Virus record (IMG/VR): IMGVR_UViG_3300023178_000038
Length of the DNA stretch: 64,000 nucleotides
Reading direction: 5' to 3' (one strand)
Source of the DNA: an uncultured virus (IMG/VR IMGVR_UViG_3300023178_000038)
Lineage: Duplodnaviria; Heunggongvirae; Uroviricota; Caudoviricetes
The notes below the pieces were generated by a model that saw nothing but the letters and a program-made list of their open reading frames with translations, was not told the DNA's origin and did no database searches. The translations under genes and the position numbers were made by a program. Below, piece after piece: positions 1-35,706 of this stretch. Each line of letters starts with the position of its first letter. Position 1 is the first letter of the stretch.

Positions 1-4
1 AACA

Positions 5-45: not shown

Positions 46-61
46 TTAATAATTAGTAGGA

Positions 62-1108: not shown

Positions 1109-1136
1109 GTTTAAATGTGCCTTTCTCTCTTACGAG

Positions 1137-6317: not shown

Positions 6318-7245
6318 ACCATTTATTAAATTTCTGTATTACTGCATTTCCTAAAACACCGTGTTTTGGTGGTTTTTCTCCTGGTGCTAAACCTAGTATC
6401 TCATTTATTTTATTTTCGTATGCTATACCTAGTTCTTCCATTTTTGTTAAAAAACCTTCTAATTTATCTTTTTCTTTTTTTGGATTTGGTGGTGTGTATA
6501 TATCAAATGGATAACCTGCCTGTGTTTTACCTGGCATTGTTGTGGTTGTAGTTGTTGGTAAATTTACAGGTCCCATTGTTGTAGTTGTTGGTATATATTG
6601 TGAATAGTCAAATAAAAACTCTTCTTCATCTACTAATCTATTTTCTAAACCTTTAATAACATTAGGATCACTTTCCGCTATTGTTTTTGCCATAAGTTTT
6701 GTAATAGTATTTCTATCTCTTTTACTTACAGCTTCGTACAGTGATTTACCTACTATGTCATTACCTCTGTTAAATGTAGCAATAATTAAATAATCAAACT
6801 CTCTTTGTGATAATGGCGTATTGTAATTGACCATACGATTATAAACATTCTTTTCAAACTCTTGTAAATCTTGTACTAATAATTCTTCAGCTTCTTCTGC
6901 TGTAATTACCATGCCTTCTTTTACAGGTACACCACTACTTCTACCTGTATGTCCGTAACCAATAGTCCAATTACCTGCACCATCATCATACGCTTCTAGT
7001 TCTATTTTTTCTTTATCTTTTAAAAAGTCAATAGCAGCTTGTGATGTTTTGTGTTCTATAATTTCAGTTTCGTCTTGTGGTACTTCGTTATTAAAAACAC
7101 CTATAGGTGATAAATAATTTACTTGTCCTGTATAGTCAGATACATCAACCACTAGCCAACCTGGACATGCTATCAAGAGTGCCAAACAAGTAGCTAAGAT
7201 CATTTCTTTCCTTTGTTGCTTGCTCTGTTGCTCGTACCTCTGCAC
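6301..7245 (-). CDS. Virion-associated GH24-type lysozyme (true start probably GTG near 7152)
   Basis: DFLKDKE..ELEAYDDGAGNWTIGYGHT, FNRG, GLENR motifs. Confidence 0.85.
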   Translation of the reverse strand: MQRYEQQSKQQRKEMILATCLALLIACPGWLVVDVSDYTGQVNYLSPIGVFNNEVPQDETEIIEHKTSQAAIDFLKDKEKIELEAYDDGAGNWTIGYGHTGRSSGVPVKEGMVITAEEAEELLVQDLQEFEKNVYNRMVNYNTPLSQREFDYLIIATFNRGNDIVGKSLYEAVSKRDRNTITKLMAKTIAESDPNVIKGLENRLVDEEEFLFDYSQYIPTTTTMGPVNLPTTTTTTMPGKTQAGYPFDIYTPPNPKKEKDKLEGFLTKMEELGIAYENKINEILGLAPGEKPPKHGVLGNAVIQKFNKWFGKNG

Positions 7246-8842: not shown

Positions 8843-11800
8843 GCTTCTCCCTGCTGTACGGGCAAATATGCACCGTATTCTAACATTGTATCATAATCGT
8901 ACTCCAAATCCTCTAAGAACTGTGTTCTTTCTTGGAATAAAGGTAATAGTAAGTTTTGTGCTATTACGTAAAAGTCATCATTACTAACAGATATTTGACC
9001 TATAAAATCTCTAAGTTGTTGTCTTTCAAGTAACATTGTACGTGATGTACGCCAACCATTAGCTGATAATCCACGACCTAATGATTTCTTTTCTAGTATT
9101 TTTATATAATCTAATACTTGTGCAACAGCTTGTCCTGTTTCTGATCCACGTAATTTAGGTTCATCTTCCCATCTTTTAAGTTCATCAAATTGTTGATCTA
9201 ATGTACCTCGTTGTGGTAGTCCTGGTATTGTTGTGTCAAATCCAGGAAACCTTTGTGCTGCTACATTTCTTTTAACAGCAAGTAATCTACTTCTCTGTTT
9301 TGCTTGGTATGGATCAGTAATATCAAATTGTTGTAATGTAGCTATACGCTCTTCTTCCATATAGAACTCACCTAATCTTTGGTTACGTGTAGCAACCCAT
9401 TCTTCTGGTGTTAATGGTTCTCTTTGCTCATTGTATATAGTTCTTGTATATGCTTCGTAATCAAAAGCACCACCACCGCCATTAGGTACAGCGTAAAATG
9501 CAGTAAGTTTATATTCATCAAATAACTCTGGATTTTCTTTTTCAAACTGTACACCACGTTCATCTACTGGTCTAGGTTCTACAACAATAGATTTAGGTGT
9601 AGATATATCTAAAGGATTAAAACCAAATTCATCTATAAAATACTTAGTTGCAGAATAGTTATCACCTGGTGCATATAAGAAATCACCGCTAACTGGATCT
9701 TTAGGTGGTGTCTCTATAAGTTCTCTGTATCTATCTGCAAGTATTTGCATAGAGTAAAGCGATCCTGCATTTCTTGGATCACCTATATCAAAACGTGGAT
9801 TTAATCCTGTAGGACCAACAAACTGTGAAAATGCTTTAATCATAGTTAAATTTTTACCAATAGAACGTGCCTTCTCTAATAATCTTTGTTGTGCTTCTGG
9901 CGTCATATCATCTTCACCATTAGCTTTTAATACTCTATATACATCAATAGTTGTGTTAGCAGCAATACGTGATAACTCACCTGGTGCTGCGTCTTCATTA
10001 AATGCAAACATTGCACGTCCTGCATTTTTTAACCACGCAGGTACACCTGCTTCTTGTACTAAATCACCAATATTTTTTACTCTTGGTAAACCGTATGGAA
10101 ATAAAAACTTTTGTGTCTCTTCAAATTTAGGTGTACCTTCTAGTACAAATGACGCAGGTATAGCTGCTACTGGACCAATACCAGGCACAACTTCTAATGC
10201 TAAGTTAAGAGAACCTGCATATCCTGGTAATCGTACACCAACATTTCTGTCTGCACCAAACAATGCGTCAGATACTAACTCATTAACTATTGGATAATAA
10301 AATACTTCTTCACCAGTTATTTCATCTTCAGCTAAAAATCCTTCACCTTCTACAGGACTAAATGGATTTTCGTCTCTAAGTGCTTGTACTGTTACTTGAC
10401 CTCTTCTAGCTATTTCTGGATTTTCTTTTAATAATTTTGCCCATGTAGTTAATATTTCTACGTATGCTTCACCAAAAGGAAATATACCTCTAAGATTGTA
10501 GGTTATCTTACTACGTTTACTTAGATCGTAAAGTAAGTCTTGTAGCTCTGACAATGCAATAGATTTAGCAAAATTGTCAATATATTCTGCGTCTATAAAG
10601 CCATCATCAAAACCTGCAAGAGTTCCTAGATATTCTATTTCTCTACCTTCTTCTGCTGTGTAATTATCTAAATCACGAATAAGATCATCTTTTTGTTTTG
10701 TTAATGCTTGTATTTCATCTTCGTCTATAGCATTAGCAATTTTGTCATCTATATCGTCTATTTCTGCTTGACCTTTTCTTCTAACTTTTTGTAAGTCATT
10801 TGTCATCTTTTGTATTTCATCTGTGTTGTCTACAAACTTAGTTCCTAGTTTTGCGTCTGCTTCGTTTAATTCTTTTACTCTACGTTCAAACATATCTAAA
10901 TTTATTTCTGTATCTGCTTTACGTAGTTTTTGTGCAGGTAAACCTATATCAGCTTTTATACTGCTTAGTAAATTTTCGTTAGGTATATTAGATTTTCTTG
11001 CACCAGACACTTTTATTGTTTTACCACCTGCTCTATAATTTTTACCTTCTAATAAAACTGTACGCATAGCAGGTGTCATACGTGGTAGTAAGTCATAAAC
11101 TGCACGCCAATATGCTTGTCTAAATACTGGTGATCTTGAAGCGTTATCTGTACGTTGTCCCATAATAACGTCAAAGCCATTTTCTATAAATCGTTCTAAC
11201 CATTTACTATCATCTAATAAAGTACCTTCTATAGGTGCTGTAACAAGTTCTGGTAAGCTATCTCCATATTCTTCTATAATTGTGTCGTAATATTTATTAG
11301 CTGCTTTACGCATAGACTTGTCATCTAGCTTTGTAAAACCTTTTCCAAATATTGCAAACAAATCATCTAATGTTTCTATACCAGTTAAACCATCTAATTC
11401 AGGAATAAAATATTTCATCTCACCACCAACTTCTATAGTTTCTGTAGCTTGTTTAATTTGTTGCGGTGTAGGATTATTTATCCATACGCCTTTATCGCTT
11501 TCTTTTGCAATCTTACCTAATTTACCACTTATCATCATGTCGTATAAATCTTCATTACGTGGTCTATCTATACGCAACGGAAACGGATTTTTACTAAAAT
11601 CTATTTCATCAAAATCAAATTTATTTAATAAATCATCTAACACTGCAAGGTCTTCATCAAAAGCACCGCCTGCTACTTGCTGTAACCTAGCTTCTACAGA
11701 TTTAGCGTAAACATATCTACCACCTGCTGTTTGCATAATATCTTCATATCTTGATCCACCTTTTGCATACTCTTCTATTACTTTTTTAGCTGCAGGACTT

Positions 11801-14316: not shown

Positions 14317-14319
14317 GTG

Positions 14320-14784
14320 TTATCCGAATTGTTGTGGCGTTCTATTTATTTTTTGTTCCGCAAACTGTAATAAACTTATAAGTTCTGATGAAGGATTTAT
14401 TTGTGCCATTGCCCTAATTAACATAACATCATCTGGTTCTAATAAGCTACTTTCTTGTGCTTGCATACTAGATGGTGTATTTATAGGTGTACCATCACCT
14501 TGTGCAAATATATCACCTACTGCTGGTGGTAAAGGTTGTAATTCTTGTTGTGGTTGTTCTGCAGGTGCAGCAACTGTTGCAGCAGGTTGTTCTACGTTAC
14601 CTTGCCTTACTTGTTCTACAAGTGCTTTTTCTTCTCCTGCACTTTCAGTAACCATACCTCTAACATCTTCTATGCTAGGTGCTTGACCATCAGTTCTCCT
14701 TGCAAGTCTTCCTGGTCCAGAAACAGCAGCAGGTCTTTTTACTCCACCTCTTCTGCCACGTTCTCTACTACTACCATTCGCCAT
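14320..14784 (-). CDS. Conserved hypothetical protein (basic N-terminus, PAAVSGPG motif)
   Basis: Homologue 59253-59708. Confidence 0.65.
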   Translation of the reverse strand: MANGSSRERGRRGGVKRPAAVSGPGRLARRTDGQAPSIEDVRGMVTESAGEEKALVEQVRQGNVEQPAATVAAPAEQPQQELQPLPPAVGDIFAQGDGTPINTPSSMQAQESSLLEPDDVMLIRAMAQINPSSELISLLQFAEQKINRTPQQFG

Positions 14785-15016
14785 TCATATCCTCCTGTTT
14801 TCCAAACCAAATTAACAGACCATTAGGTATATATTGAACTACCATGCCTTGTGGCATATCTGTAATTACTGGCTCTTCTGCATACATTTCATCTTCATGG
14901 TCTGCTATAGCTTCTTCAGTTTTTTGCCATACATCTACTAAACAGTTATTTACTATTTCACTAAATTTGTAATTGTTAACTTCTCTTTCATTGAAAGAAT
15001 TAGCCACCTTGTACAC
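14771..15016 (-). CDS. Conserved small acidic hypothetical protein
   Basis: Homologue 59692-59922. Confidence 0.6.
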   Translation of the reverse strand: MYKVANSFNEREVNNYKFSEIVNNCLVDVWQKTEEAIADHEDEMYAEEPVITDMPQGMVVQYIPNGLLIWFGKQEDMNGEW

Positions 15017-16757
15017 CTCCTAGTAATAACGATCGTATATCTGGTGCAGGTCCTTGTGGCACTGGTGCTTGTCCGCCACCTAATGCTTGCTCTAATAATG
15101 CAGCTTCATTTTCTGGTACCTCTGGTTCTTCTGCTGTGTAAAACTTGTCAAGTATAGATTGCATAGAGTTTGGATTTTTATATATCTGTACAAGCGCCAT
15201 AGTTGCTTTAGGATCGCCTTGACTTGCTTGCACTTTAAGTGTCTCAAACAATGTACGTTCTGCTTCGTCTTTTAATATTCTATCGTTAATCTTTTGTACG
15301 TTATCTAGTCCGTCCATGTTTTCTTGCAAAGTCTCTTTGTCTATAATACCTGCTTGTAATAATTGTAATCCAGAGACAATCTTTGTTGGTTCATCAAAAC
15401 CTGCCATTACACCATACACACGTCTAGTCTTGTACATACCTGATATGTCTGCGCTAGGTGTATATTGTTCTGCAAACGCTGTGCCTTTTAGAAATCCTGC
15501 TAATGGTTTTTTACTATTGCCATTAAGTGCTTCGTCCATCTCTAAACGTTTATAATCAATTTCTTCTATTGCTGTTTTTAATGCTAACTGATATTCTTTT
15601 ACGTTTAGATCAACAGACGATAGTAACTCTTGCAATCCCCTACCTGTTACAAACGAGTTAGGAGATATAGCGTCATCACTGACTGGATAACTAGAACCAA
15701 CACGTAATTGTCGTTCTATTCTGTCTATTTGTGTAAATAACTGATACGGAACATTGTTAGGTGGTTTAGCAACTTGTGAACCAGGTGTTAAGTAATTGAC
15801 TGCAAATCTACCACGTTTGTAGTTCCCGCTCTCTAATTCACCAACGATATTCGTTTCTGTAAATACACTATCTTCCATAGCAATTATGGATAAGACGTTA
15901 ATCTTTGCCATAGCTGCCATCAAACCTAATACATGGTCATATTGACCTGTTAGTCTGTCAAAACTAAATCTCTTTGATATAACAAAGCGAGGTCCTGACT
16001 TTAATGGATTTGGTGTAAAATCTAATATTTGTTTTGTATCTGGTAAAAATACGTATGTACCATCTTCGTCATAGTATTCTACTAATTCTGTACCATCAGC
16101 TAAATGGTTATCCCAACTTCTTTGGAAACCATCATGGTATTTAAACTTACTATATCCAGAAGGAAACTGACTGCTTTCATCTATAGCAACGTTTGCTTGT
16201 GGATACATTTGTTTTATAACTGCATTAGGAACAAGTCGTATTAATGCAAGTTCTTTTGGATCTTGGTCAGGTCCATAATATCCTGGATAACAGTCATACG
16301 GATCTCGTAGTTCTGCATGAGGATACATTACGCCATCTGGTGACATCTTCTGTCTTATAATCCATACACAGAAACCATAACCAGGTAGCCATCTTGCTGC
16401 CTGTGGTAACTGCATATCCATCTTAGAGTAACTGTCTAAGTTAGTTACAATACGCTCTAATTTTTCTGCTTTGTTTTTAGCACGTTCACTGTCTGCATAC
16501 TGATCAACTTTGATGTCGGGCATACGTCCTAATTTTTGTGCTAAGTGTTCTAATCCTGAATTTATAAGATTAGGTACAGGTAAATCTATATCATAGTTTT
16601 TTGCGCTCTCACCTAACAATGCTGCTATACCATTGCTTCCACCGTTCATAATAGAACGAACTCTATCACGATACTCATAGTGTCCACTATGTTCGTGCAT
16701 GCCTTTTAAGTCGTCTGTTTTAATTAATAATTCGTCAGGTGTTAAAACCATTACCAA
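15000..16757 (-). CDS. Portal protein, copy A
   Basis: 585 aa immediately after terminase; near-identical homologue 59906-61660. Confidence 0.8.
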   Translation of the reverse strand: MVMVLTPDELLIKTDDLKGMHEHSGHYEYRDRVRSIMNGGSNGIAALLGESAKNYDIDLPVPNLINSGLEHLAQKLGRMPDIKVDQYADSERAKNKAEKLERIVTNLDSYSKMDMQLPQAARWLPGYGFCVWIIRQKMSPDGVMYPHAELRDPYDCYPGYYGPDQDPKELALIRLVPNAVIKQMYPQANVAIDESSQFPSGYSKFKYHDGFQRSWDNHLADGTELVEYYDEDGTYVFLPDTKQILDFTPNPLKSGPRFVISKRFSFDRLTGQYDHVLGLMAAMAKINVLSIIAMEDSVFTETNIVGELESGNYKRGRFAVNYLTPGSQVAKPPNNVPYQLFTQIDRIERQLRVGSSYPVSDDAISPNSFVTGRGLQELLSSVDLNVKEYQLALKTAIEEIDYKRLEMDEALNGNSKKPLAGFLKGTAFAEQYTPSADISGMYKTRRVYGVMAGFDEPTKIVSGLQLLQAGIIDKETLQENMDGLDNVQKINDRILKDEAERTLFETLKVQASQGDPKATMALVQIYKNPNSMQSILDKFYTAEEPEVPENEAALLEQALGGGQAPVPQGPAPDIRSLLLGGVQGG

Positions 16758-18667
16758 AAAACCTCGTTGTATTCACTCTGCTTATAATAGTTATAAGAAG
16801 GAGTATAGTCGCTCTCTGCTTCAGCTAACATCATTTTTACGTTTGTGCGTATACGTTTCATTGGAAACCAACTTGCCATAACTAAGTCAGTTTTTGTTTT
16901 AACATTACGTGAATTACTTGCACCTGCTTGTGAAAAATATATAAGCTGTTGTCTAAAAATATTTACTTTACGTTTTGTTGCAGCGTCTCCCCATGCTAAA
17001 TTTATCTTTTGGTTTTCATACATACCTACCATACTGGTAACACCGAATGTAGGATCCCATTTGTTTTTATAGGTTTGATGTCCTTCTATTCTGACACCGT
17101 GACTTGCTGCCCAGTTACGTATATCTCTGTCTTGTCCTATAGCACGTTGAAAACCGTTTTCTTCTACTATCCAATGTGATAACCAATACTTGTCATACCA
17201 CTCTTTCATTAATGCGTGTGCTTTTTGTATACCACCGCCTTGATCGTTTTTTATATCTACAAGCCATACTTGTTGTGTTTTTACATTATACGCCCATAAC
17301 ACTGCTGCCTGGTATCCCGTACTTGCGGGATCTAATCCTGCAATAAGTGTTGTATGTGGTGGTATGTCACCTAACTTACGTGATGGATCTAAACAACTAT
17401 CTACTGCTTCTGCTGTAAACAAACTCATACCGTCTGGTATAGCTTTGTTAAGATAGACCATTTCAAATATATTTCTACCACCTGTTGTCTCTGCTGCAGC
17501 TAATTGTTCTAATAACCATTTATGAGAACGCTTGCCTGACCATAACATGTGTTCTGTATGGTCTATAGTTTCATCTTCTAGTGGTACTTCTAAATCATGC
17601 GCACGGTCTACAATACTTTCCCATGCTTTGTTTTCTAAGAGGTGATGGTATAAATCGTCTGGGTGCTGTCTTGATCCAATGACGACCATTCCTGTATGTT
17701 CCTCTTTTCTTGACTGTAGCGTTGTGGTCCACCAGTTCCTGGTGTTTTCTCTAGCACTTGGTTGCACAGTGCTTCCATGATCTTCGATGTCGTCTGCAAT
17801 AATAAGGTCTGCGTCTCTGGAAAGGATTTTACCTCCTTTTCCAATTGCGACAAGAGTTGGCGACTTAATACCAGAGACTGTTCTAGTTGCAACAGTAAAT
17901 TGACTGGACGACCAACTTTTTCCTGAACGATTAGCAGGTCTAAATCCGTCCCAGTCTCCGTAATCTTGGATAAGTCCTTCATTATTCTCCAAATGGTCTA
18001 ATACCGCACCAACACTGTTCTTTGCAATATCCTCGTTACCACCGCACCACATGATACGAATGTTAGGATTTTTACATATCATGTATACGCAAAAGTGTGT
18101 TAACAAGTCTGTTTTACCATGTCTAGGTGGTGACAGTATCATTAACCTGTTCCCATGTTTTATACTATCTAAGATAGCACCAATCCACTTCTTTTGAAAG
18201 TCAGGTGTTTCATAATTCTTACCTTGTTCTGTTAAAAAGTAATCATCTCTAAATTTTACAAAGTCGTCTACGTCCGCTTCCTGGATTTCCCCCACAACCG
18301 CTTTTGTACGTTTTTCGTACTCTGCTTCTTTTGCCATATCTTCTACATACGCTGCCATAGCCCTACTAACAGTTGCTTGGCTACAGTTCAGTATGTCGGC
18401 AATTTCTTTTTTAGTTTTGCTACCTGATAAAATGTCGTTAAAAAAATTTTTTTTCTTCATAATGGCGTAGTAGTCTCCCCTACGCTTCTGTATGTTTGGA
18501 TCTACGTCTTTTACAACCTGTATATCTTTTGCACTCTTCTTTGCCCTATATGCCCTCTTCTTTACTCTGTTAGCGCACTTGTCGCTACAGTATTTTTGCC
18601 TACCTTCTGGTAAAGGGGACACACAATCAGAAGCTGTACAAAGTGTGTTTTTTTCTTTATTTGACAT
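16751..18667 (-). CDS. terL: Terminase large subunit with N-terminal Zn-ribbon and HTH, copy A
   Basis: Walker A SPPRHGKT, Walker B LIIADD, nuclease GLDPA; start MSNKE chosen by alignment with copy B. Confidence 0.92.
   Translation of the reverse strand: MSNKEKNTLCTASDCVSPLPEGRQKYCSDKCANRVKKRAYRAKKSAKDIQVVKDVDPNIQKRRGDYYAIMKKKNFFNDILSGSKTKKEIADILNCSQATVSRAMAAYVEDMAKEAEYEKRTKAVVGEIQEADVDDFVKFRDDYFLTEQGKNYETPDFQKKWIGAILDSIKHGNRLMILSPPRHGKTDLLTHFCVYMICKNPNIRIMWCGGNEDIAKNSVGAVLDHLENNEGLIQDYGDWDGFRPANRSGKSWSSSQFTVATRTVSGIKSPTLVAIGKGGKILSRDADLIIADDIEDHGSTVQPSARENTRNWWTTTLQSRKEEHTGMVVIGSRQHPDDLYHHLLENKAWESIVDRAHDLEVPLEDETIDHTEHMLWSGKRSHKWLLEQLAAAETTGGRNIFEMVYLNKAIPDGMSLFTAEAVDSCLDPSRKLGDIPPHTTLIAGLDPASTGYQAAVLWAYNVKTQQVWLVDIKNDQGGGIQKAHALMKEWYDKYWLSHWIVEENGFQRAIGQDRDIRNWAASHGVRIEGHQTYKNKWDPTFGVTSMVGMYENQKINLAWGDAATKRKVNIFRQQLIYFSQAGASNSRNVKTKTDLVMASWFPMKRIRTNVKMMLAEAESDYTPSYNYYKQSEYNEVFW
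17635..17982 (-). CDS. Candidate overprinted gene nested in terL (alternative frame, 115 aa)
   Basis: Same start, stop and length at 62538-62885; GGAG-AATA-ATG RBS; locally suppressed synonymous change. Confidence 0.45.
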   Translation of the reverse strand: MKDLSKITETGTDLDLLIVQEKVGRPVNLLLQLEQSLVLSRQLLSQLEKEVKSFPETQTLLLQTTSKIMEALCNQVLEKTPGTGGPQRYSQEKRNIQEWSSLDQDSTQTIYTITS

Positions 18668-18689
18668 ATCTATATGGTATAGTGTAGCA

Positions 18690-18910
18690 TACAGGAACAA
18701 GCATTGTGGTATTCCTGCCTATACAAGTACCACAAGTTCAGGATCTCGTTTAGAAGGTTGGATTAGCAGGACCGCCTTAGTCGTGGGTTGAGCCACATTC
18801 CTCACATTTTATTTATTAGAGAGAGAGCAAAAACGTTACTACACTTAATAAACTGGTTTGGGTTGGGAGTGACACAGGGTTAGCTACACCTACAACGACT
18901 ACTCGACTGT
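18690..18910 (+). ncRNA. Conserved structured RNA with covarying hairpin and probable pseudoknot
   Basis: Stem 18704-13/18726-35 with compensatory and wobble changes vs 63598-607/63620-29; loop CCTGC complementary to GCAGG 18766-70; upstream TGnTATAGT. Confidence 0.65.
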
Positions 18911-18934
18911 AAGATTACAGATATTAGTGCGACT

Positions 18935-18982
18935 GCACTATATCTTGTAATATACCACATATAGTACCACTATATATAGTAT
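18935..18982. promoter_or_regulatory. Three NrdR-box-like palindromes overlapping a TATACT -10 (18980-85)
   Basis: GCACTATATCTTGTAA, ATACCACATATAGTAC, CCACTATATATAGTAT vs consensus acaCwAtATaTwGtgt; outer boxes 32 bp apart. Confidence 0.6.
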
Positions 18983-18991
18983 ACTGTCTAC

Positions 18992-19072
18992 GGGGGTGTT
19001 TTAGATCGCAGTTAGATGTTTGTTCCAACCTTAACTAACTCAACGCAGGTGCAAATCCTGCCACCTCCACAA
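18992..19072 (+). ncRNA. Minimal tmRNA-like / tRNA(Ala)-like RNA without mRNA-like domain, copy A
   Basis: GGGGGTG/CACCTCC acceptor stem with G3-U70 and A73; T-arm GCAGG-TGCAAAT-CCTGC; helix AGTTAG/CTAACT; no D-stem; -10 box 6 nt upstream. Confidence 0.8.
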
Positions 19073-19301
19073 ATTACCACATAAACATTGACGTATTCAT
19101 ATACATTTCCGCACGGCTTCGGTTAAGGTATGGGGGTTATATATATGCGTGTGTTATGCGTGTGCGGTTGTATGTTGTGCTATGCGCGTGTTCGTCTACG
19201 TTGTGCGCGCGTCTGTGTTGTTATGCGTTCGCAAGTCTAACCGCATACTATTTTTTAAAAAACTAACGGGGATCCATACAAAACGAAATACGATTTTACA
19301 T

Positions 19302-19874: not shown

Positions 19875-19954
19875 TGTATTTCCTTCCCGTATACATAAGC
19901 TAATTATATAACCATGATCCGTATAAAACAAGTATCGATTTTAGATATATATAG

Positions 19955-20690: not shown

Positions 20691-20920
20691 AGTTATCACC
20701 TTCCCGTAATAAATTAATTACTTAATTATTATTTATAATCTTTTATTTGTCAAGGATATACAAAACCCCGTAATAAATAAAACCAGTAACAACAAATATA
20801 AAACCTATAACCCCGTAAAGCATAATTAAAGTTTTCATTTTCTTTTATATTTGTTATACATATTTAATTTAAAAATTCTAAAAGGTAATTTATATTTCCA
20901 TATTAAAAATTTAATTCTAT

Positions 20921-21217
20921 TCATAATGATCCTTTAGTGCGTAATTTCGGTTTTAGTCTAGCCCATACCGACTTTAGCTTGCTCTTGTTTTGTGTTTCAA
21001 TATATATCTTTGCCCAACTAAGTCCCGCTACATATCCCGCGTCATAGGATAAGTTGCAGTCCAGTGCTTCCCATTCTCCAACTGCTTCTAATACTTCGTC
21101 CGCAGTATCAAATTTCTCACCGTCAAACTCATAATCATAATGTCCGTCTTTGTTTTCACTATCAACACGTTCTTTTACACTAGCTATATCTTTATCAATT
21201 ACTTTTAGTATGTCCAT
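20921..21217 (-). CDS. Hypothetical protein
   Basis: 98 aa, GGAAGGA RBS. Confidence 0.6.
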   Translation of the reverse strand: MDILKVIDKDIASVKERVDSENKDGHYDYEFDGEKFDTADEVLEAVGEWEALDCNLSYDAGYVAGLSWAKIYIETQNKSKLKSVWARLKPKLRTKGSL

Positions 21218-21560
21218 ATCTATCCTTCCACAATTACTTCTACAACGCCATCAACAATCGATACTTGCTTGCGGTTATTAACAATATCAACAAATATATA
21301 ATTTATTTTTAGTATATGTAACAAATCATCAACAATATTACTTTTATCTATTACTACTTGTTCACCCAAATTATATAAAATCATAATTGCTCTACTTCTA
21401 TATCAATAGTCTCTCCACCAATCATAGAAAACTCACTAGGATTATTGGCTATATAGTTTTCTGCTTGTTCTTTATTCTTGGCTTTTACTTTATATACTTC
21501 TGTGCATGTTCTTTGCACAATATATTCTTTATCCATATCTATCCTTCCACAATTATTTCT
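21213..21560. repeat. 29 nt direct repeat at two gene junctions (21213-21241, 21532-21560)
   Basis: TCCATATCTATCCTTCCACAATTA identical, then (C/T)TTCT. Confidence 0.85.
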
Positions 21561-21835: not shown

Positions 21836-22064
21836 TAACAATCTCCTTCTCTACAACTGTTGCAAACTAATTCGCTTCCGCAACAATCACAATACGCGTC
21901 TTGACACTCACACATTGCTCTCAACATTGTGTAGCGGGCAATAACAACCATCAAAAATAGTTCCTTCTTGACAAACAATATCGCTATCGTATGTAATTGG
22001 ATACTCATTCTCCATTAAGAATGTCATACAACGTAACGTAAAGTCATGTATGTATTGTAATAAT

Positions 22065-22298
22065 TTATTTTTCACGCTTCTCCTTCCGTAAGTTATAGTT
22101 AATATCCATAACTATATCTAATTGTGATTTTATATGTTCTTTTTCTAATTGTAAAGCACTAAACTTATGTTCGTCTATGCTTCTGTTTTTGTATTCACTA
22201 AACATGTATCCAGTTCCAATACCAAAACAATATACTGTTATCCCCGTTAATAAGTCCATATCAATGTCCGCTACAACATGGCTTACAAAACTCAACAA
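22065..22298 (-). CDS. Small membrane protein (start uncertain)
   Basis: Hydrophobic segment then coiled coil. Confidence 0.5.
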   Translation of the reverse strand: MLSFVSHVVADIDMDLLTGITVYCFGIGTGYMFSEYKNRSIDEHKFSALQLEKEHIKSQLDIVMDINYNLRKEKREK

Positions 22299-22697: not shown

Positions 22698-23528
22698 CTA
22701 ACTTAAAACTGCTTCGGCTTTAGTTCTATACTTATCTAAAGTTTTCTCATCATCACTGTTCTGAACACGTTGCATGACAATAGCTTCTTTGTTTTTTACG
22801 TTATCATCAGCACTAGAATGCTTCCATAAATAAAAACAATTCTTTACATAACGCATACTGGTATTTCCTTTATCGTTATTGATGTTCATTATCTTTGTAG
22901 CTTGTGTCAATATATCTGTGTTAATACCAAAAACGTCTGGTGTCATATTAAGATACTCTGTTCCACTCAACTTACATCTATCAGCTAAGTCTTTAATAAA
23001 AGTATCCATGACATTGTCAATAGCTTCTATCATGCGAACGTCTTGACGTTGTGTTCGTGGCGGTAACTTAAATAAGTTTAAGTATTCATCATCACTAAAC
23101 TCAAAATCAAAATATAAATTATCCATAGTTTTGTATTCAGTATTCTCTAACTCTCTCACTACATTTACTTCTGCACTCTCCAGAATTAACTTACATGTAT
23201 CATCTACTGTAGTTTTCTTATGCTTTAGTATCTGTCTTGTTGTGTGTAGTAAGTGCTTCGGGCTTACTGCTACGCAATAAATATTCTCATCATCTCTTAC
23301 TGCGTCATCAACAATAAACTTTGGATAGTAATTCTTACCAAACTCTACAATGTTTAACACGTATGAGTTAGTAACTTCTATCCAGAATATTTGTCTTGTC
23401 ATATCCCATTTAAACGCCATTGCAAACTCATCTCTTGTGTGGCTATCTGTTTTCTTTACTATTCCTATGGTTGCTAACTCACGTAAAACTTTTACGTCAT
23501 TGTAATCCATTTTTATTTCTATTTTCAT
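22698..23528 (-). CDS. Hypothetical protein, possibly a distant beta-clamp-like fold
   Basis: 276 aa; EVTNSYVL recalls the ATDSYRL clamp motif; weak. Confidence 0.4.
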   Translation of the reverse strand: MKIEIKMDYNDVKVLRELATIGIVKKTDSHTRDEFAMAFKWDMTRQIFWIEVTNSYVLNIVEFGKNYYPKFIVDDAVRDDENIYCVAVSPKHLLHTTRQILKHKKTTVDDTCKLILESAEVNVVRELENTEYKTMDNLYFDFEFSDDEYLNLFKLPPRTQRQDVRMIEAIDNVMDTFIKDLADRCKLSGTEYLNMTPDVFGINTDILTQATKIMNINNDKGNTSMRYVKNCFYLWKHSSADDNVKNKEAIVMQRVQNSDDEKTLDKYRTKAEAVLS

Positions 23529-24124
23529 TTAGTTATCTCCTTCTTATTTTTTAATGTATCAATAAGCCATTTAGCTTCTGGCTTATCTAATTTACTTTTA
23601 CATATTGTTTCAGTATGTCCGTCAAAAACAAACAACGGATCATGCTTTAAATTATGTTCGACTACAAAATTTTTTATTAGCCGTTCATAATTAACAACAT
23701 TGTAAAAACTATCTGTAATTGTATATAAAATATTTAATTTAACTCTACTGTGTTCTTGAAATCTACCTAACTCTCTTGACGTTCTACCAAACTTATAAAA
23801 GTAATCGTTCTCTGCAAAGTAAAATTCTTGTGTTTTGTTTTTGTGTTTTGTTTTGAGTTTCGTTCTACGTGTTTTATACATGCTATCCAAATAACATTGA
23901 CGACTGCAATATTTACTCTTACTTGCTCTTAAAATAAATTTAGAGTTACAAAAACCACAACGCACGGTATCTCCAATATGACGTGTAGTTTTTTGGTGCG
24001 TTCTTTTTTTGAAGTATCTTTGGTTACACTTGTTACTACAATAACGTAATGTTCTACCATGTTTCCTAAACTTATGTATATTAAGAATGTTGTAACACTT
24101 GTGATTTTCACAACGTAAATTCAT
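23525..24124 (-). CDS. Zn-finger + GIY-YIG (T5orf172-like) putative endonuclease
   Basis: Two CxxC...YCSxxC repeats; FYF...YKFGRT...RF..H...E..I...DGHTE. Confidence 0.65.
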   Translation of the reverse strand: MNLRCENHKCYNILNIHKFRKHGRTLRYCSNKCNQRYFKKRTHQKTTRHIGDTVRCGFCNSKFILRASKSKYCSRQCYLDSMYKTRRTKLKTKHKNKTQEFYFAENDYFYKFGRTSRELGRFQEHSRVKLNILYTITDSFYNVVNYERLIKNFVVEHNLKHDPLFVFDGHTETICKSKLDKPEAKWLIDTLKNKKEITK

Positions 24125-24369
24125 GTATCTCCTTCCACAAAGATGTAGTGCTTGCTAACTATTAAGAATTGGATACACTCCTACTTTATGTAGTGGCGGT
24201 TATGTATTATATTCTTAAATTTCAAACCGCTACCCGCAATAGTTAGCTTACACTTGTAACACATAATTAACGTGGTCTGCATATAGTTGTTTCGTGTCTA
24301 GGTGGTAATGAACCACCAACCATTATTATGTGTTAATTAATTTATAATCGAAGTTTTATTTTATGTCAA
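24125..24369 (-). promoter_or_regulatory. sigma70/SigA promoter plus ~210 nt multi-helix leader RNA
   Basis: TTGACA-17-TATAAA (24369-24341); 11 bp helix 24257-67/24325-35; 10 bp helix 24154-63/24238-47. Confidence 0.65.
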
Positions 24370-25390: not shown

Positions 25391-25654
25391 CTACAACTGT
25401 AGCTGAATTTGATCGTCAAGTCTATTTAATAACTCTTGTTTTTTATCCTGATCATTCAATCTATACATGCTGACACTACCTCTGTGTGTGTGCATAGTAC
25501 ATTTTTCACCTAGTATATAATCTTGTCCGTGATCTTGTCGTATCTCTGATATTCTATTTCGTGCAGACCAACCGAACTCTATAAGCTCTGTAGCACAATG
25601 CCACTTCTTATCATCTAATAGCTGTAGGATCTCGTCTCTCATACTCATAGTCAT
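25391..25654 (-). CDS. Winged-helix DNA-binding protein
   Basis: ILQLL...ELI...RISEIR...Y.L pattern. Confidence 0.55.
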   Translation of the reverse strand: MTMSMRDEILQLLDDKKWHCATELIEFGWSARNRISEIRQDHGQDYILGEKCTMHTHRGSVSMYRLNDQDKKQELLNRLDDQIQLQL

Positions 25655-25949
25655 CTCCTTCTACTTCATACCATTCGTATTTTAATGTTAATTCACTGCC
25701 CATAGGTATGTCAACGATCGTATATAAATAATATTTTCTATGATCCAATATTTTTTTTAAGTTAGGTGTGTCACTATGATTTACAAAACCACCTAACGGT
25801 GTGCGTATTGTATCTAACGTAGGTGTGTCTATGATATGTGACATTCCTAAGTTTACACCTTTATCTATATCTACTAATGTAAACAAACCTAAGCCATCTA
25901 TCTTGCTAGGTTGTATTGTAAGATACTCTGGTAGTGGCTTGTAAGTCAC
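25611..25949 (-). CDS. SET-domain protein
   Basis: SKIDGLGLF, GFVNHSDTPN, ELTLKY. Confidence 0.85.
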   Translation of the reverse strand: MTYKPLPEYLTIQPSKIDGLGLFTLVDIDKGVNLGMSHIIDTPTLDTIRTPLGGFVNHSDTPNLKKILDHRKYYLYTIVDIPMGSELTLKYEWYEVEGDDYEYERRDPTAIR

Positions 25950-26212: not shown

Positions 26213-26971
26213 TTAGAATGGTGGTTCGTCTTCGCCAATGTCCTCTATTGCTTTTGCTTCAGGCATTGAAGGCATAAACCATTCTTCTGGTGCTTGTTTT
26301 TCTGCGTTAAAACTATCCATGTAATATATACGTGGATTACCATTGTCACATTCTTTGTTCTTACACTTCCAATCTGGATACGTGTCTTTTATTTTACCGC
26401 TTGCTTTATCTACCCTGTTGTCCCATAACTCACTCTGGCAACTAAGACATCTAGGTTCTACTGTGCCGTTAGTTACTACAACTTTTTCTTGAACCACTAC
26501 ACCAATCTCTTCTAATGCAGATTTAGTATCTTCTACTGGACCTGTAGGTACGTCTTTAATTTTTTCTTTAATAGAAGGTGAAGGAGTATAGCTATTGCTG
26601 TTGCCAGTTTTAGCTACACTCTTGGTAACTTGACTGTCCGACAAGTTCTCCACCTTCTGCATTTCTGTGACTGATGGACGCTTCTTTGCTTGATAAATCC
26701 AGTTCGCTAATGCTCTACCAACTGCGCTCGTCTCCCCGTTCTCTATCCATGATGTTTGGTTAGCACCTTTAGGTCCGTGTTGGTCTTGCGCTATACCAGT
26801 TGCTACTGGTCTTGCGTCTTCCATGTTTTTATAAATCTCTGCTTTATGAACAGCAGACTTGTGGTCTTCTGATATAGCAATAATATCAGTTTCTATTCTG
26901 CCGTTAGGATTATCTTTCCAAAACTTTTTTAATCTATCTTCTACTTGATCGTATTCATCTTGCCATGCCAT
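26213..26971 (-). CDS. Putative single-strand annealing/recombination protein with C-terminal Zn finger and acidic PF tail
   Basis: V.DRL..F...P.GRI.T...ATG.A...ENGETSAVGRALAN; CxxC...WDNR...PDWKC; ends EDEPPF. Confidence 0.7.
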   Translation of the reverse strand: MAWQDEYDQVEDRLKKFWKDNPNGRIETDIIAISEDHKSAVHKAEIYKNMEDARPVATGIAQDQHGPKGANQTSWIENGETSAVGRALANWIYQAKKRPSVTEMQKVENLSDSQVTKSVAKTGNSNSYTPSPSIKEKIKDVPTGPVEDTKSALEEIGVVVQEKVVVTNGTVEPRCLSCQSELWDNRVDKASGKIKDTYPDWKCKNKECDNGNPRIYYMDSFNAEKQAPEEWFMPSMPEAKAIEDIGEDEPPF

Positions 26972-27216
26972 TAGTCGTTCTCCTCCTCCATCATGTCTTG
27001 GTCTTTATCTATATGATATTCTACCCATACTTTTGTTTTTTTACCAACACTATATTGTTTTAGTAAATCTGTAATACTTTGTTCCATGTGATTAAAAATC
27101 AAATCAAACACTTCTTCTGCTTCTTTTATATTGCTAGCAGTCATTATATAATCACGTGTACTGTTGTCAGTAAACATAACTTTTACATCTCTATCCATTG
27201 GATCAGGTGCGCTCAT
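26971..27216 (-). CDS. Hypothetical protein
   Basis: 81 aa, coupled start/stop. Confidence 0.6.
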   Translation of the reverse strand: MSAPDPMDRDVKVMFTDNSTRDYIMTASNIKEAEEVFDLIFNHMEQSITDLLKQYSVGKKTKVWVEYHIDKDQDMMEEEND

Positions 27217-27422
27217 TCTTGTTCTTCCTTACTTGCTAGTTCTATTGCTGTCATCATCATTTCATTGTAGTTTTCTACAAATTGTTTTGTTAAACTTTCT
27301 ATTTTTTTTGCGTTAGGTTTGTTAAGTTTAATAGAAGTCTGTGACACTTCTTGACCACCGCATGCGTTAGCCATAGCTATCGCCCACTTCTTTAAATCCT
27401 TTTGACTTGTAAATATATTCAT
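27213..27422 (-). CDS. Hypothetical protein
   Basis: 69 aa, coupled. Confidence 0.6.
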   Translation of the reverse strand: MNIFTSQKDLKKWAIAMANACGGQEVSQTSIKLNKPNAKKIESLTKQFVENYNEMMMTAIELASKEEQE

Positions 27423-27425
27423 GGC

Positions 27426-27662
27426 TTAGTCGCCACCACGTTCTGAACGTACAAATACGTAGTGGATAACATTATTCCAATTCTCAAAGTGATGAATGTA
27501 TAGTCCGTGTCTGTGTAACCAATCACGTAACTCACCTGTGCTATCTATGTACTTAGGACTATGTTTATGTATAACAATAAATCCTCTACCAGTTTCACCA
27601 ACTGATTGTACAAGTTCAGACAACATAAAGTTATCATCAAACGTAGTATTAATTGCAGTCAT
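27426..27662 (-). CDS. Hypothetical protein, first gene of the early/middle operon
   Basis: GGAGG RBS, TATACT -10 upstream. Confidence 0.6.
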   Translation of the reverse strand: MTAINTTFDDNFMLSELVQSVGETGRGFIVIHKHSPKYIDSTGELRDWLHRHGLYIHHFENWNNVIHYVFVRSERGGD

Positions 27663-27718
27663 TACTACCTCCCACTATAAGTGTAGTATAAAAAACCATA
27701 ATATCCAAGAATTTTACG

Positions 27719-27803
27719 AAAAACACCAGATCGAAGTTAATTGACCTGGTGTCAAGGATAAGAGTAAAGGAGGAAACCTCTTATCAATGAAATGAGTGTT
27801 GAC
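27719..27803 (-). ncRNA. Candidate sRNA with anti-SD loop GUUUCCUCCUUUA
   Basis: TGgTATAAT (27816-27808); 8 bp stem GATAAGAG/CTCTTATC; terminator ACACCAG/CTGGTGT + U-run. Confidence 0.55.
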
Positions 27804-27832
27804 ATTAATTATACCACATGGTATTGTGGTGA

Positions 27833-27905
27833 GATCAGATAACATCTAAACGTGTTATCTCCTTCCCAAGCAATAAGGCGGTCCTGTGAGACCGCCTTGC
27901 TTTTT
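27833..27905 (+). ncRNA. Candidate sRNA with GUUAUCUCCUUCCC seed complementary to early-gene RBSs
   Basis: TTGACA-17-TATTGT (27799-27827); stem AGATAACA/TGTTATCT; terminator AAGGCGGTC/GACCGCCTT + TTTTT. Confidence 0.65.
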
Positions 27906-27926
27906 ATGTACCTTGCCATGTATAAC

Positions 27927-29147
27927 TCATACGATCTCTTTGTTGTTGTGTCCGTTACTATCAACAACCATAGTCATTACACCTTGTTTGGTTTTCTTAC
28001 CTGCTTGATGTTCAAACCATGTACTCTCATCTAAGCTAGGTACTTGTATCCATGTGCGTCCGTCATGTAATTCACGGTGATGATGATAATGACCTGTGAC
28101 AAGAATGTCACTGGATCCTGCATGGAAGCCACCAAATGTTTGGTTCTTCCACCAGTTCATAAGTTTATTTTCAACTGTGCCACTGTAACCTGCAAGATGT
28201 CCATGAGTAAAACTCATGTTTGTACCGCATACGTTTAGTGATAGGTGTGGCTCATCTGGTATTACAAACTTTACATGTTTGTACTGTGGTTTATCTGCAA
28301 ATATTTCTGCAATCTGTTCAAACACTTCTATGTCATAGTTGTCCATCTCACCTGTTGGTGCAAGATTCTTTGCAATTCTTTTAGTTCCATGATTACCTGG
28401 TACTGCACCTACTACAACTACATCAAAGTCTCTTGACCATTCAACTAATGCTTTAGCAATAAGTCTTCTAGCTAACTTCATTTGATTACGATAATCAAGT
28501 TCGACTCCGTTCGGTCCCATTGCTTGTGGGTAAAATCCTACGCAGCCCTCGACTATATCACCTAATCCTACAACTGTTAACTGATCTAGCTGCACTCCTG
28601 CTTTACGCAAGAAGTTATAACGATCACGTACTGTATCTATCTTTTCTAAAAATCTATTAACAATAGCTTCAGTACCACCGCCATCACGCTTGCCTAACTG
28701 TAGATCAGATATAGCAACAAAAAAACTAGCTTTAGGTTTTGTTACTTTAGGTTTAGCTTTACGCTTGTAAGTCTGGATCCACTTAGATATACGATCATAA
28801 TCTTCTTTGTCTAGTGCATGTTCTTTGTAAACAATCTGTGCTTTGTATGCCCATGCTTGTTGCACGTCTCCTTTGCCCATATTCATATCCCACGTGCTTA
28901 CACGAATAGTGTCATTTAGAATAGAATACTTATCAGGATCGAATCCCCACGATCTAAGAAGATCATTAAACTCTGGACTAGCATTGTCCATAGCTCTTGT
29001 TGTTATTGTGCCTGTCTTAGTTTTGTAATTAAATTCTACGCCAGGTTCCCAACCATTGGGGTGACTTGGTGTATCTTTAACTTCGTTGTGTGCTACGTCC
29101 TGTTGGGTTGCAGTAAGTTTACTTACCTGCGAGTTGTTTTTTTGCAT
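27927..29147 (-). CDS. Calcineurin-like metallophosphoesterase (Mre11-like)
   Basis: SDLQ, LGD, PGNH, THGH, GHYH motifs. Confidence 0.88.
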   Translation of the reverse strand: MQKNNSQVSKLTATQQDVAHNEVKDTPSHPNGWEPGVEFNYKTKTGTITTRAMDNASPEFNDLLRSWGFDPDKYSILNDTIRVSTWDMNMGKGDVQQAWAYKAQIVYKEHALDKEDYDRISKWIQTYKRKAKPKVTKPKASFFVAISDLQLGKRDGGGTEAIVNRFLEKIDTVRDRYNFLRKAGVQLDQLTVVGLGDIVEGCVGFYPQAMGPNGVELDYRNQMKLARRLIAKALVEWSRDFDVVVVGAVPGNHGTKRIAKNLAPTGEMDNYDIEVFEQIAEIFADKPQYKHVKFVIPDEPHLSLNVCGTNMSFTHGHLAGYSGTVENKLMNWWKNQTFGGFHAGSSDILVTGHYHHHRELHDGRTWIQVPSLDESTWFEHQAGKKTKQGVMTMVVDSNGHNNKEIV

Positions 29148-29310
29148 ACTCTTTTAGTACTACTATCACTGATCCACCACCTGCAATTGCTGCAGCTTGG
29201 ATTGCTGTAATGTCTAAGTCGAGTGCAGGACCTACAAGTAAAGCAGAACCAAATGCTTCAATGAATGTCCATACAACTTTTTCGATAAGTGCTTTGAGTT
29301 CATCACTCAT
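29119..29310 (-). CDS. Holin (r1t-like)
   Basis: EKVVWTFIEAF + two hydrophobic helices, next to putative lysin. Confidence 0.65.
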   Translation of the reverse strand: MSDELKALIEKVVWTFIEAFGSALLVGPALDLDITAIQAAAIAGGGSVIVVLKEYAKKQLAGK

Positions 29311-29322
29311 ATTATCTCCAGT

Positions 29323-29886
29323 CTATATTATTGGTCTTCCCTGTAGTTTAGCGTCAATTCGTGTCACTTTTTCGTGAATAGAATCCAACGTTTTACTATC
29401 GGAACTTTGTTCTGGTGCGGCAGCACCATCTAAATTTATCTTACTTACTTCTAATGTAACTGGTTTACCTTGTAGTAATACTTTTGCAACCTTTGCATAC
29501 ATGTTTTGATACGCTATGCGTGATTGTCCAATCATACCGTCTTTACCTAGATCAAGATCTTGTTGTGTGTTACCTGTCAAAATACAACCTGATGTATGCT
29601 CGTCCGTATTCCCAGAGTGTATAAGTATGTATTGAAATCCAGGAACGTTTTGTAATTCTAACATTCCGTAGTGTGCATTCTTATATCTTGCACTGTATTT
29701 CTGGTGAAATCCACCAACTTTTCTAAACTTTATATCGTATGTACCTTCAGGTATGCAGGTTTCGTGCATTACTTTTACTGCTTGATATTGATCTTCAAGT
29801 GTATAACACTCAAACTTACCGTCAATATACATAAGACCATTAGTAGCGTCTATGCCGAACTGTGTACGAACAACTTGTATTTTCAT
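29323..29886 (-). CDS. DUF5675-like protein, candidate lysis/cell-wall enzyme
   Basis: CYTLED, CIPEGTY, ILIHSGN...TSGCIL.G. Confidence 0.75.
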   Translation of the reverse strand: MKIQVVRTQFGIDATNGLMYIDGKFECYTLEDQYQAVKVMHETCIPEGTYDIKFRKVGGFHQKYSARYKNAHYGMLELQNVPGFQYILIHSGNTDEHTSGCILTGNTQQDLDLGKDGMIGQSRIAYQNMYAKVAKVLLQGKPVTLEVSKINLDGAAAPEQSSDSKTLDSIHEKVTRIDAKLQGRPII

Positions 29887-34614: not shown

Positions 34615-35706
34615 ATGAAGAAACTTACTGTACTTGGTAACGGCATTGCTAGTATGCTTGCTATTAATTATTTTAAATTACACACTGATTGGGAAATAGA
34701 TTGTTTAATAAACCCAAACGCAAAACACTGGGACGTAGGTATAAGTTCTGCTTTAGATACACCGTTTCAATTAGATAACATAAATTATTTGGATATAGAA
34801 AAGTTTTATGCCAACATAAAATTAGGAATTATGAAAGAAAATTTTAATAATAAAGATTATTTTCAATCATACAAATTAAGTAATGCTAGTTTGCAATTTA
34901 ATAGTAAAGATTTTATTAATTATCTTATGTCAATAAATAAAATAAAATATATTGAAACAGACAACTTTAACAATATATCGTCAGATTATATATTTGATGG
35001 TAGTGGTATACCTAATATAGATGAAAGCTATAATCTTATTAAAAACATTCCAGTCAATACAGCATTAGGAATTAAAATACCTCACGAATATCCACCATTT
35101 ATGTACACAAAAATAAAAGCAATGAAACATGGTTATATTTCAATAATACCAAGTAAAAGATATTTGTTTGTTACACACATGTTTAATTCTAATTTAAATA
35201 CACAAGATGAGATACTAGAAGAATTAGAAAAACAATTTGCTTTTAAAGATTATCAAGTATTACCTTTTAAAAATTATTACAAAAAGTTTCCTTTTAATAA
35301 AAACAAAGTTTACATAGGAAATAAAAATTTTTTTGTTGAACCTTTTGAAGGAACAAGTTTAACTGGTATTAATATAACAATAAATTCTGCTTATCATTTA
35401 TGGAATAATCCAAGAACTTTTGATCCACAGGCGTTAAGAGATTATATTGATGAAGCAATAGATACTATTCTTATGCACTATTTAGCTAATAAAAATATAG
35501 ACACAAAGTTTTGGAATACAGCTAATAGTTTAGCTTTAGAACATTTTACAAATAATGTATCAGAAAATTTTAAAAACAGAGTATTAAATATATATGATCC
35601 AAGAGTTAAATATAATTACTCACATTTTTACGATCAAAAAATGTTAAAAGAAAATTTAGATTATTTAAGTGTAGGAGATTTATTCTACAACTTGTTCAGG
35701 AACTGA
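34615..35706 (+). CDS. Tryptophan-halogenase-like flavin-dependent protein (degenerate motifs)
   Basis: VLGNGIAS, IFDGSG, T...AM..GY.S.IP, IGN..FFVEP.EGTS; only long + strand gene; very AT-rich. Confidence 0.7.
   Translation: MKKLTVLGNGIASMLAINYFKLHTDWEIDCLINPNAKHWDVGISSALDTPFQLDNINYLDIEKFYANIKLGIMKENFNNKDYFQSYKLSNASLQFNSKDFINYLMSINKIKYIETDNFNNISSDYIFDGSGIPNIDESYNLIKNIPVNTALGIKIPHEYPPFMYTKIKAMKHGYISIIPSKRYLFVTHMFNSNLNTQDEILEELEKQFAFKDYQVLPFKNYYKKFPFNKNKVYIGNKNFFVEPFEGTSLTGINITINSAYHLWNNPRTFDPQALRDYIDEAIDTILMHYLANKNIDTKFWNTANSLALEHFTNNVSENFKNRVLNIYDPRVKYNYSHFYDQKMLKENLDYLSVGDLFYNLFRN

Follow-up and report, generated by a model that had tools for sequence, protein, structure and literature searches.

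Two predicted divergent small RNA genes with anti-Shine-Dalgarno motifs form an invertible cassette in a group of aquatic phages

In the DNA of an uncultured virus (IMG/VR record IMGVR_UViG_3300023178_000038; Caudoviricetes), a first-pass annotation singled out a short + strand segment as a candidate small RNA gene whose seed is complementary to the ribosome-binding sites of many early genes. The locus raises the question of whether an RNA gene is indeed present there, and, if so, which messages its product would be expected to contact. The window, i.e., the whole stretch of 64,000 nucleotides that was analysed, has a GC content of 35%, carries nearly all of its genes on the - strand and has the appearance of phage DNA. 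In the - strand reading, a gene for an SbcD-like exonuclease (27927–29147; phrog_284, E 3e-54) lies directly upstream of the locus, and the window also encodes a RusA-like resolvase, a SET-domain protein, a lysozyme and an SU10-type major capsid protein. The small SET (methyltransferase) domain protein (25611–25949, - strand; PF00856, E 2e-7) is unusual for a phage. Among the few sizeable + strand ORFs is one for a tryptophan-halogenase-like protein (34615–35706; PF04820, E 2e-16; phrog_2928).

Searches of 27400–28300 with megablast and blastn found no close DNA relative among cultured phages, and the best cultured matches of the capsid protein are actinophages, at 28–32% identity. The capsid relatives (~31% identity), together with leaderless and extended -10 promoters, weakly hint at a Gram-positive or actinobacterial-type host; the GC content resembles that of published Actinomarinales phages (PMC7771536), which is likewise no more than a hint. 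WhiB, integrase and tRNA genes were looked for in the window and none was found. A scan of genome contigs for the signature of the cassette described below returned seven matches in unrelated taxa, about the number estimated by chance. The closest record (G001) spans only part of the window and is 100% identical across the cassette region, so that it is not independent of the window. Positions 1–19108 and 41662–63994 are two related but differing copies of the structural region (72–92% identity); the window therefore either extends over two related phage genomes or results from an assembly that is chimeric or concatenated.

The + strand elements that the first-pass annotation had listed, a TTGACA-17-TATTGT promoter, a hairpin and a GC-rich terminator followed by a U-run, are all present (Table 1). 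The predicted RNA of ~70 nt was delimited at its 5' end from the -10 sequence and at its 3' end from the T-run. The promoter of the window scores 10/12 with the TG. Promoter-like strings occur in this AT-rich DNA at background frequency (61 found versus 55.9 ± 7.6 expected), and the + promoter is thus credible only through its conservation in relatives. There, TTG and TA...T are kept in all 30 distinct promoter variants, and a TAnnnT sequence lies 16–18 nt past the -35 in 30/30 of them (the search treating the A and the last T as obligatory), with ten different hexamers whose middle letters vary.

The 5' hairpin, claimed at 8 bp, has nine pairs including one U-G and a predicted energy of -8.0 kcal/mol (z -4.6), which none of 200 shuffled sequences equalled. 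It forms in eight of ten sequence-distinct variants (z -1.6 to -4.6), its 3' arm always ending at the U before CC(UUCC), and is weak in the remaining two (z -0.76 and +0.48). The string GTTATCTCCTTCCC spans positions 27854–27867. The CU motif that follows the hairpin is invariant as CTCC plus a T two bases on (alignment A1), reading CTCCTTCC in 69 of 73 related loci and CACCTCCAT in the other four. According to folding predictions, its mean unpaired probability is 0.62–0.88 in 32 of 34 variants of the + RNA, the two exceptions being the L033 and L056 group, whose motif is CACCUCCAU. The terminator core has ten pairs, six of them GC, followed by CTTTTT; it is the top-listed terminator-like site within 18–32 kb and probably works both ways. 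No match to any of the 4227 Rfam models was obtained across the window at gathering thresholds, and relaxing the limit to E values up to 10 for positions 26500–29500 gave three chance-level matches, the best scoring 21.3 bits against a cut-off of 115.

Table 1. Positions of the cassette elements, of the complementary ribosome sites and of the rejected ORF in the window
Feature	Position	Strand	Remarks
-35 of + promoter, TTGACA	27799..27804	+	exact in 21/30 distinct promoter-region variants; others TTGCAx, TTGACT, TTGATT
Extended -10 of + promoter, TGG + TATTGT	27819..27827	+	17-nt spacer from TTGACA
Predicted + strand small RNA, ~70 nt	27834..27905	+	same architecture in 34 distinct homologous sequences
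5' hairpin of + RNA, AGAUAACAU / GUGUUAUCU	27837..27860	+	arms 27837-27845 / 27852-27860
Unpaired CU motif CUCCUUCCC, anti-Shine-Dalgarno-like	27859..27867	+	order: 5' hairpin, free CUCCUUCC(C), terminator
Intrinsic terminator of + RNA	27868..27905	+	core hairpin 27874-27899, T-run 27901-27905
Extended -10 of - strand RNA, TGGTATAAT (TGnTATAAT)	27808..27816	-	inside + promoter spacer
Predicted - strand small RNA, ~85 nt	27718..27802	-	divergent partner of + unit
Hairpin 1 of - RNA	27757..27785	-	loop GGUUUCCUCCUUUAC, 27778 down to 27764, end letters form the closing G-C pair
Hairpin 2 of - RNA (ACACCAG...CUGGUGU) + UUUU, terminator	27719..27752	-	
43-codon ORF, judged no gene	27714..27845	-	start 13 nt from SD
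Ribosome site GAAGGAGAUAAC of gene 22698-23528	23532..23543	-	12/12 complementary to + RNA; -19.2 kcal/mol
Ribosome site GGAAGGAGAUA of gene 23525-24124	24126..24136	-	11/11; -20.7 kcal/mol
Ribosome site GGGAAGGUGAUAAC, gene with ATG 20690	20692..20705	-	13/14; -21.9 kcal/mol, best predicted duplex
Ribosome site GGAAGGAGA of gene 21908-22075	22079..22087	-	9/9; seventh site, absent from the first-pass list
Ribosome site GAAGGAGAU, gene with ATG 21835	21841..21849	-	
Ribosome site GAAGGAGAU, gene starting 25648-25654	25653..25661	-	
Ribosome site GGGAAGGA, gene with ATG 19874	19881..19888	-	

Using the exonuclease as the query, we fetched 80 related loci (82–99% protein identity) from viral metagenome contigs. 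In 73 of them the unit belongs to a larger cassette adjoining the exonuclease stop codon, downstream of the gene, and the other seven contigs end before reaching it. The contigs that carry the cassette originate from many metagenomes; 51 distinct versions were counted over 270 nt, and nine when only the 14 nt around the CU motif are considered. Read in the + orientation, the modules follow one another as an A-run, then a hairpin, a hairpin with the loop GTAAAGGAGGAAAC, TTGACA, then AATTATAnCA, the -10-like TAnnnT, a hairpin of variable sequence, CTCCTTCC(C), and the terminator hairpin with its T-run. Many relatives carry, between the + RNA and the exonuclease stop codon, a third promoter-plus-terminator unit that is absent from the window; it consists of TTGACA, 17 nt, TATTAT, the conserved GCCATATTCTAT and a strong terminator (L030, about 5200–5330; also in L031, L032, L039, L041, L051, L058 and L062–L078, and inverted in L042 and L044).

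On the opposite strand the cassette contains a second predicted RNA, of ~85 nt, which the first-pass annotation had missed. The promoters of the two RNAs diverge and are interleaved, the -10 of the second one falling between the -35 and -10 elements of the + promoter. This TGnTATAAT (ATTATAnCA as its reverse complement in the + reading) is the most conserved promoter element of the cassette, exact in 27/30 distinct promoter variants and differing by a single letter in the remaining three. The ends of the - RNA were placed from this promoter at one side and from hairpin 2 and its U-run at the other; the U-run is found in most groups and is weak or absent in L033, L035, L041 and L042. The loop of hairpin 1 holds the anti-SD core CCUCCUUU, and its 15 consecutive positions are invariant in 27/27 aligned sequences, whereas the stem varies through substitutions that compensate each other. 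Judged in silico, each of the two units would be a non-coding element bounded by its own promoter and intrinsic terminator, within the 50–200 nt expected of trans-acting small RNAs with an anti-SD seed, and in both of them, in the + RNA motif and in the - RNA loop, a pyrimidine sequence complementary to the SD is predicted to be held single-stranded.

Neither the window nor 506 kb of related loci contained a site matching the - RNA loop over more than 10 nt. The complement of the loop corresponds to an "ideal" ribosome site that is common among many unrelated phages: it has 115 matches in viral contigs, ~60 of them unrelated, and most of the latter read GTAAAGGAGGAAACC directly followed by ATG. 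In L123, L147 and L204, contigs of 10.9 kb and 143 kb that are not related to this phage, the same 15-mer, GGTTTCCTCCTTTAC, lies in the loop of an 8-bp hairpin, between the arms CTGAGCAG and CTGCTCAG, and is followed by a T-run; this hairpin may be an independent anti-SD-loop RNA of a large phage. Pairing of the + RNA and the - RNA with each other was considered and rejected, their duplex energies equalling those of shuffled controls in four of the six variants tested.

Four of the 73 loci (L042, L044, L049 and L050) carry the entire cassette in the opposite orientation with respect to the flanking genes. In these loci the - RNA runs toward the exonuclease stop codon; as no gene lies downstream of it, this RNA is not a 5' leader. 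Moreover, the GGAAGGAG strand of the + unit is there antisense to phage transcription, with the terminator and not the promoter upstream, and consequently this strand is not the ribosome site of a read-through mRNA.

Covariation supports both helices. In the + terminator, 96.7% of the cells are paired, eight of the ten pairs show compensatory changes, none of 500 shuffles reaches the score, and slid controls are only 26–50% paired; the corresponding values for hairpin 1 of the - RNA are 94.0%, eight of ten pairs, 0/500 shuffles and 37–47%. Furthermore, the strand on which each helix exists as RNA can be read from its wobble pairs, an A-C cell being a G-U pair on the opposite strand. The + terminator has 36 G-U and 0 A-C cells on the + strand, and hairpin 1 of the - RNA has 26 G-U cells and 1 A-C cell on the - strand. 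Accordingly, each helix is kept as RNA on the proposed strand; the cells are not independent events. In the largest group of relatives, the 5' hairpin of the + RNA contains an A-C mismatch, which would be G-U if read on the other strand, and the predicted fold of the reverse complement is 4–9 kcal/mol better there; by minimum free energy the reverse complement is favoured in several groups.

Among the 22 runs listed, 19 contain part of 27400–28400, of which 14 are on record as RNA, and related sequence is contained in RNA libraries from salt marsh, freshwater and seawater. Logan contigs of four RNA runs cover 27400–27665 and parts of 27967–28400, which are only the flanking genes, and leave 27672–27943 uncovered; since assembly drops short or variable sequence and such libraries lose small RNAs, this gap counts neither for nor against a transcript. 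Three RNA contigs from different studies stop at 27657–27665, beside the start codon at 27662. Taken together, the + strand unit behaves, as far as its sequence features indicate, as a conserved predicted small RNA gene, with promoter, hairpin, unpaired CU motif and terminator retained in nine seed variants, and we regard the presence of a real small RNA gene at this locus as likely.

The caution that the string might instead be the ribosome site of the 43-codon - strand ORF did not gain support. In relatives, the ORF that follows the same SD has 1, 2, 4, 5, 7, 10, 11, 13, 14, 20, 32, 43 or 45 codons with no shared peptide, and the 43-aa product has no PHROG match. A + strand mini-ORF after AAGGAGG (ATG AAA TGA) was discarded as not conserved in the alignment of relatives. 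A type I toxin-antitoxin arrangement was likewise rejected, the ORFs under the antisense RNA ranging from 1 to 45 codons and sharing no peptide, so that no small ORF is conserved there.

With which messages, then, would the + RNA pair? The six complementary sites reported in the first-pass annotation were all recovered, each just upstream of a - strand start codon, and a further one was added (Table 1). The ribosome sites of about ten small genes at 19.8–27 kb have the consensus GGAAGGAGAU, to which the + RNA motif is exactly complementary; their ribosome-site family is GGAAGGAG(AU), and the matched genes make up the block of small genes that separates the exonuclease from the structural genes. 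Two - strand neighbours in this region (20921–21217 and 21381–21536) have an identical 14-nt ribosome-site string, TGGAAGGATAGATA, and share upstream context, which suggests a local duplication. Contrary to the description of the matched genes as early, the earliest genes lie elsewhere: those at 30.2–36.0 kb look leaderless (TATAAT, 5–7 nt, ATG) and have no SD. Six genes make up this set on the - strand between 30168 and 35994 (starts at 35994, 34585, 34331, 32866, 32525 and 30168); all have a perfect TATAAT 5–7 nt ahead of the ATG without an SD, and they look like leaderless early genes with promoters of the extended -10 type.

That the + RNA is antisense to ribosome-binding sites was borne out for the sites of the block, but only CUCCUUCC(C) is conserved as a free motif; the GUUAUCU portion of the proposed seed belongs to the hairpin, as its 3' arm, and relatives have other sequences there, with no corresponding change in their ribosome sites. 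Of the 75 start regions, 5 contain 9 or more contiguous nt of the 14-mer complement. When random flanks were placed on a fixed AAGGAG core, 1.2% of 5000 trials gave as many matches of at least 9 nt, and 0.16% attained the summed excess. Among themselves, the real ribosome-site 14-mers of the block show matches almost as good as those with the seed complement (up to four at 9 nt or longer), as the earlier caveat that SDs resemble each other had anticipated; the string is therefore the consensus of the ribosome-site family.

The top 12 of the 75 predicted duplexes of the + RNA all fall among the 25 start regions of 19.5–27.7 kb (hypergeometric 2e-7); the generic 16S tail places 6/12 and the - RNA 8/12 of their top duplexes inside this block. 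An enrichment of pairing at start regions beyond that of the generic tail was not observed: the start regions lying below the 5th percentile of the background amount to 32%, 33% and 36% for the two RNAs and the generic anti-SD tail, with no excess over the latter, and the pairing energies of the two RNAs follow those of the generic tail (Spearman 0.81 and 0.78).

Related phages were expected to conserve the RNA together with its sites. The + RNA unit is indeed retained across nine seed variants, but within the ~4 kb on either side of the exonuclease gene in each relative seed and site do not co-vary, nor does pairing beyond the 8–9 nt core follow the ribosome sites. Matches of at least 9 nt to the locus's own seed are absent from five of nine seed groups, including the group of 29 loci, and exceed matches to foreign seeds only in the group of the window (17 own versus 11 for the best foreign seed). 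In the 29 loci, where the seed complement is GGAAGGAGUUGUCU, no start region matches the own seed over 9 nt or more and 20 match the window-type string; in the L043 group (12 loci, 69 kb), GGAAGGAG occurs nowhere, and the RNA is still kept.

These observations can be accommodated in the following mechanism. RNA polymerase would initiate in one of the two directions from a shared ~30 bp of interleaved promoters, since the - strand TGGTATAAT lies inside the + promoter. Rightward firing would yield the ~70-nt RNA, with its 5' hairpin, free CUCCUUCC(C) and terminator, and leftward firing the ~85-nt RNA, with a hairpin presenting GGUUUCCUCCUUUAC in its loop and a second hairpin as terminator. The free motifs of both RNAs would be copies of the anti-SD core of the ribosome, and the most likely action of both RNAs would be to base-pair with the SD regions of mRNAs and so shut out the 30S subunit, in the manner of the C-rich or UCCC-motif small RNAs known from Gram-positive bacteria. 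The + RNA is predicted to pair best (9–13 nt) with the GGAAGGAG(AU) sites of the about ten small genes that would be transcribed just after the cassette, and the - RNA would suit canonical AAAGGAGG sites. We give roughly even odds to this complete picture, in which the flagged unit is a small RNA gene forming one half of an autonomous, divergent two-RNA cassette whose anti-SD motifs mask ribosome sites, and the chances that the small RNA acts by masking the SD sites of the phage's own middle genes appear similarly balanced. Judging from complementarity and predicted structure, the RNAs of the cassette probably block the translation of some messages; a switch for a whole early regulon, as originally proposed, is unproven.

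The masking of the phage's own SD sites has to be weighed against a different address for the same RNAs. The invariance of the 15-nt loop exceeds what SD pairing needs, and both RNAs could be real with their CU motifs aimed at the host, where they would mask host SD sites or, as decoys of the 16S 3' tail, occupy a tail-recognising host factor, for instance a defence nuclease or modification enzyme. This would be in keeping with a loop that is invariant in all aligned sequences and yet lacks a match longer than 10 nt in the phage, with the persistence of the RNAs in lineages that have a different type of ribosome site nearby, with the lack of seed/site co-variation and with the resemblance of the loop complement to an "ideal" ribosome site, while early phage genes that look leaderless would escape an anti-SD block. 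However, many middle and late phage genes use SD sites and would be struck too, and a single RNA species would have to titrate many messages; we consider action on the host doubtful. Still less probable is a general reprogramming of translation, in which two abundant mimics of the anti-SD tail, made early from host-type promoters, would mask SD sites widely and spare the leaderless first genes, or would serve as decoys that take up a defence factor with which the host targets the 16S 3' tail, the interleaved promoters setting the ratio between one RNA tuned to GGAAGGAG and the other to AAAGGAGG.

Two further explanations dispense with a trans-acting seed, and we judge both to be very improbable. 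The locus might produce no trans-acting RNA at all and consist of a bidirectional terminator of the exonuclease gene plus promoters for downstream genes, the CU string being antisense to the ribosome site of the small - strand ORF or of a start-stop mini-ORF. The A-rich and T-rich runs that flank the hairpin would permit termination both ways, some start codon occurs 5–14 nt past GGAAGGAG in every variant, promoter-like strings are at chance level in AT-rich DNA, and in the largest group it is the reverse complement that has the better fold. Yet the ORF has no conserved length or peptide and its spacing is poor in most variants (11–14 nt), the four inverted loci place the GGAAGGAG strand antisense to transcription with the terminator upstream, the G-U pairs of the terminator suit the + strand, and the critical letters of the + promoter are kept in 30/30 variants. 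Alternatively, the cassette might act in cis and not through a seed, either with the + RNA as an antisense RNA to exonuclease read-through, to which it is by construction fully complementary whenever such a - strand RNA is made, or as a promoter-interference switch that sets transcription into the downstream block; the overlap of the promoters, with the - strand -10 inside the + spacer, and the position at the junction of the replication/recombination genes and the small-gene block would fit such roles. A role in read-through does not predict that the cassette occurs in either orientation relative to its neighbours, and action in cis leaves unexplained why a CU motif of 8–9 nt and a loop of 15 nt remain invariant amid changing sequence.

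If the RNAs mask ribosome-binding sites, as in the mechanism set out above, the cassette would offer phages a simple and portable means to time or bias translation. Few trans-acting small RNAs of lytic or uncultured phages are known, and a review of phage RNAs, in its accessible sections, lists mainly those of temperate coliphages (PMC12197685). Here, a widespread group of aquatic phages keeps two predicted small RNA genes in a compact cassette found in either orientation. The free motif between hairpins and the invariant 15-nt loop are two clean objects for seed/site mutagenesis, and the division into leaderless early genes and SD-led later genes leads to a testable prediction of which messages escape.

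Judged by its sequence features, the cassette is a new family of small RNAs with anti-SD seeds, of a known functional kind and a member of no named family. Its partner RNA, interleaved promoters and invertibility are new, and no description of such a cassette was found in the accessible portions of the literature on phage small RNAs with anti-SD motifs. Like RsaE (also named RoxS), the other Rsa RNAs and LhrC, the RNAs predicted here are short, have their own promoter and intrinsic terminator, and expose an SD-complementary pyrimidine motif in a loop or between hairpins, with several targets, which in our case are candidates. Precedents for C-rich or UCCC motifs are provided by LhrC of Listeria and the Rsa RNAs of Staphylococcus aureus, according to PMC4132741 and PMC2790875. 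Unlike these RNAs, the cassette is phage-encoded, its motif is of the CUCCUU type rather than UCCC or CCCC, it has no Rfam match, and it comprises two RNAs diverging from interleaved promoters. The 6C sRNA of Mycobacterium and other Actinobacteria, whose C-rich loops bind several mRNAs without a chaperone (PMC6486639), is of comparable design, and an actinobacterial-type host is here a weak hint rather than an identification. The cassette RNAs differ from 6C in fold and motif, show no Rfam match to it and are not accompanied by a WhiB gene in the window. The c4 RNA has one target, ant, located downstream in the same operon, and is cut from a precursor; the + RNA, in contrast, lies on the strand opposite to all of its candidate targets, which are several, and the cassette RNAs have their own promoters, occur on either strand and are complementary to a whole family of sites, or to no particular one. 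In phages P1 and P7, c4 uses exposed sequences to base-pair with the surroundings of the ribosome-binding site on a phage mRNA, whose translation is thereby blocked (PMC12197685); the + RNA described here resembles c4 in being phage-encoded and in exposing a sequence complementary to phage ribosome sites, through which it would exert a comparable repression.
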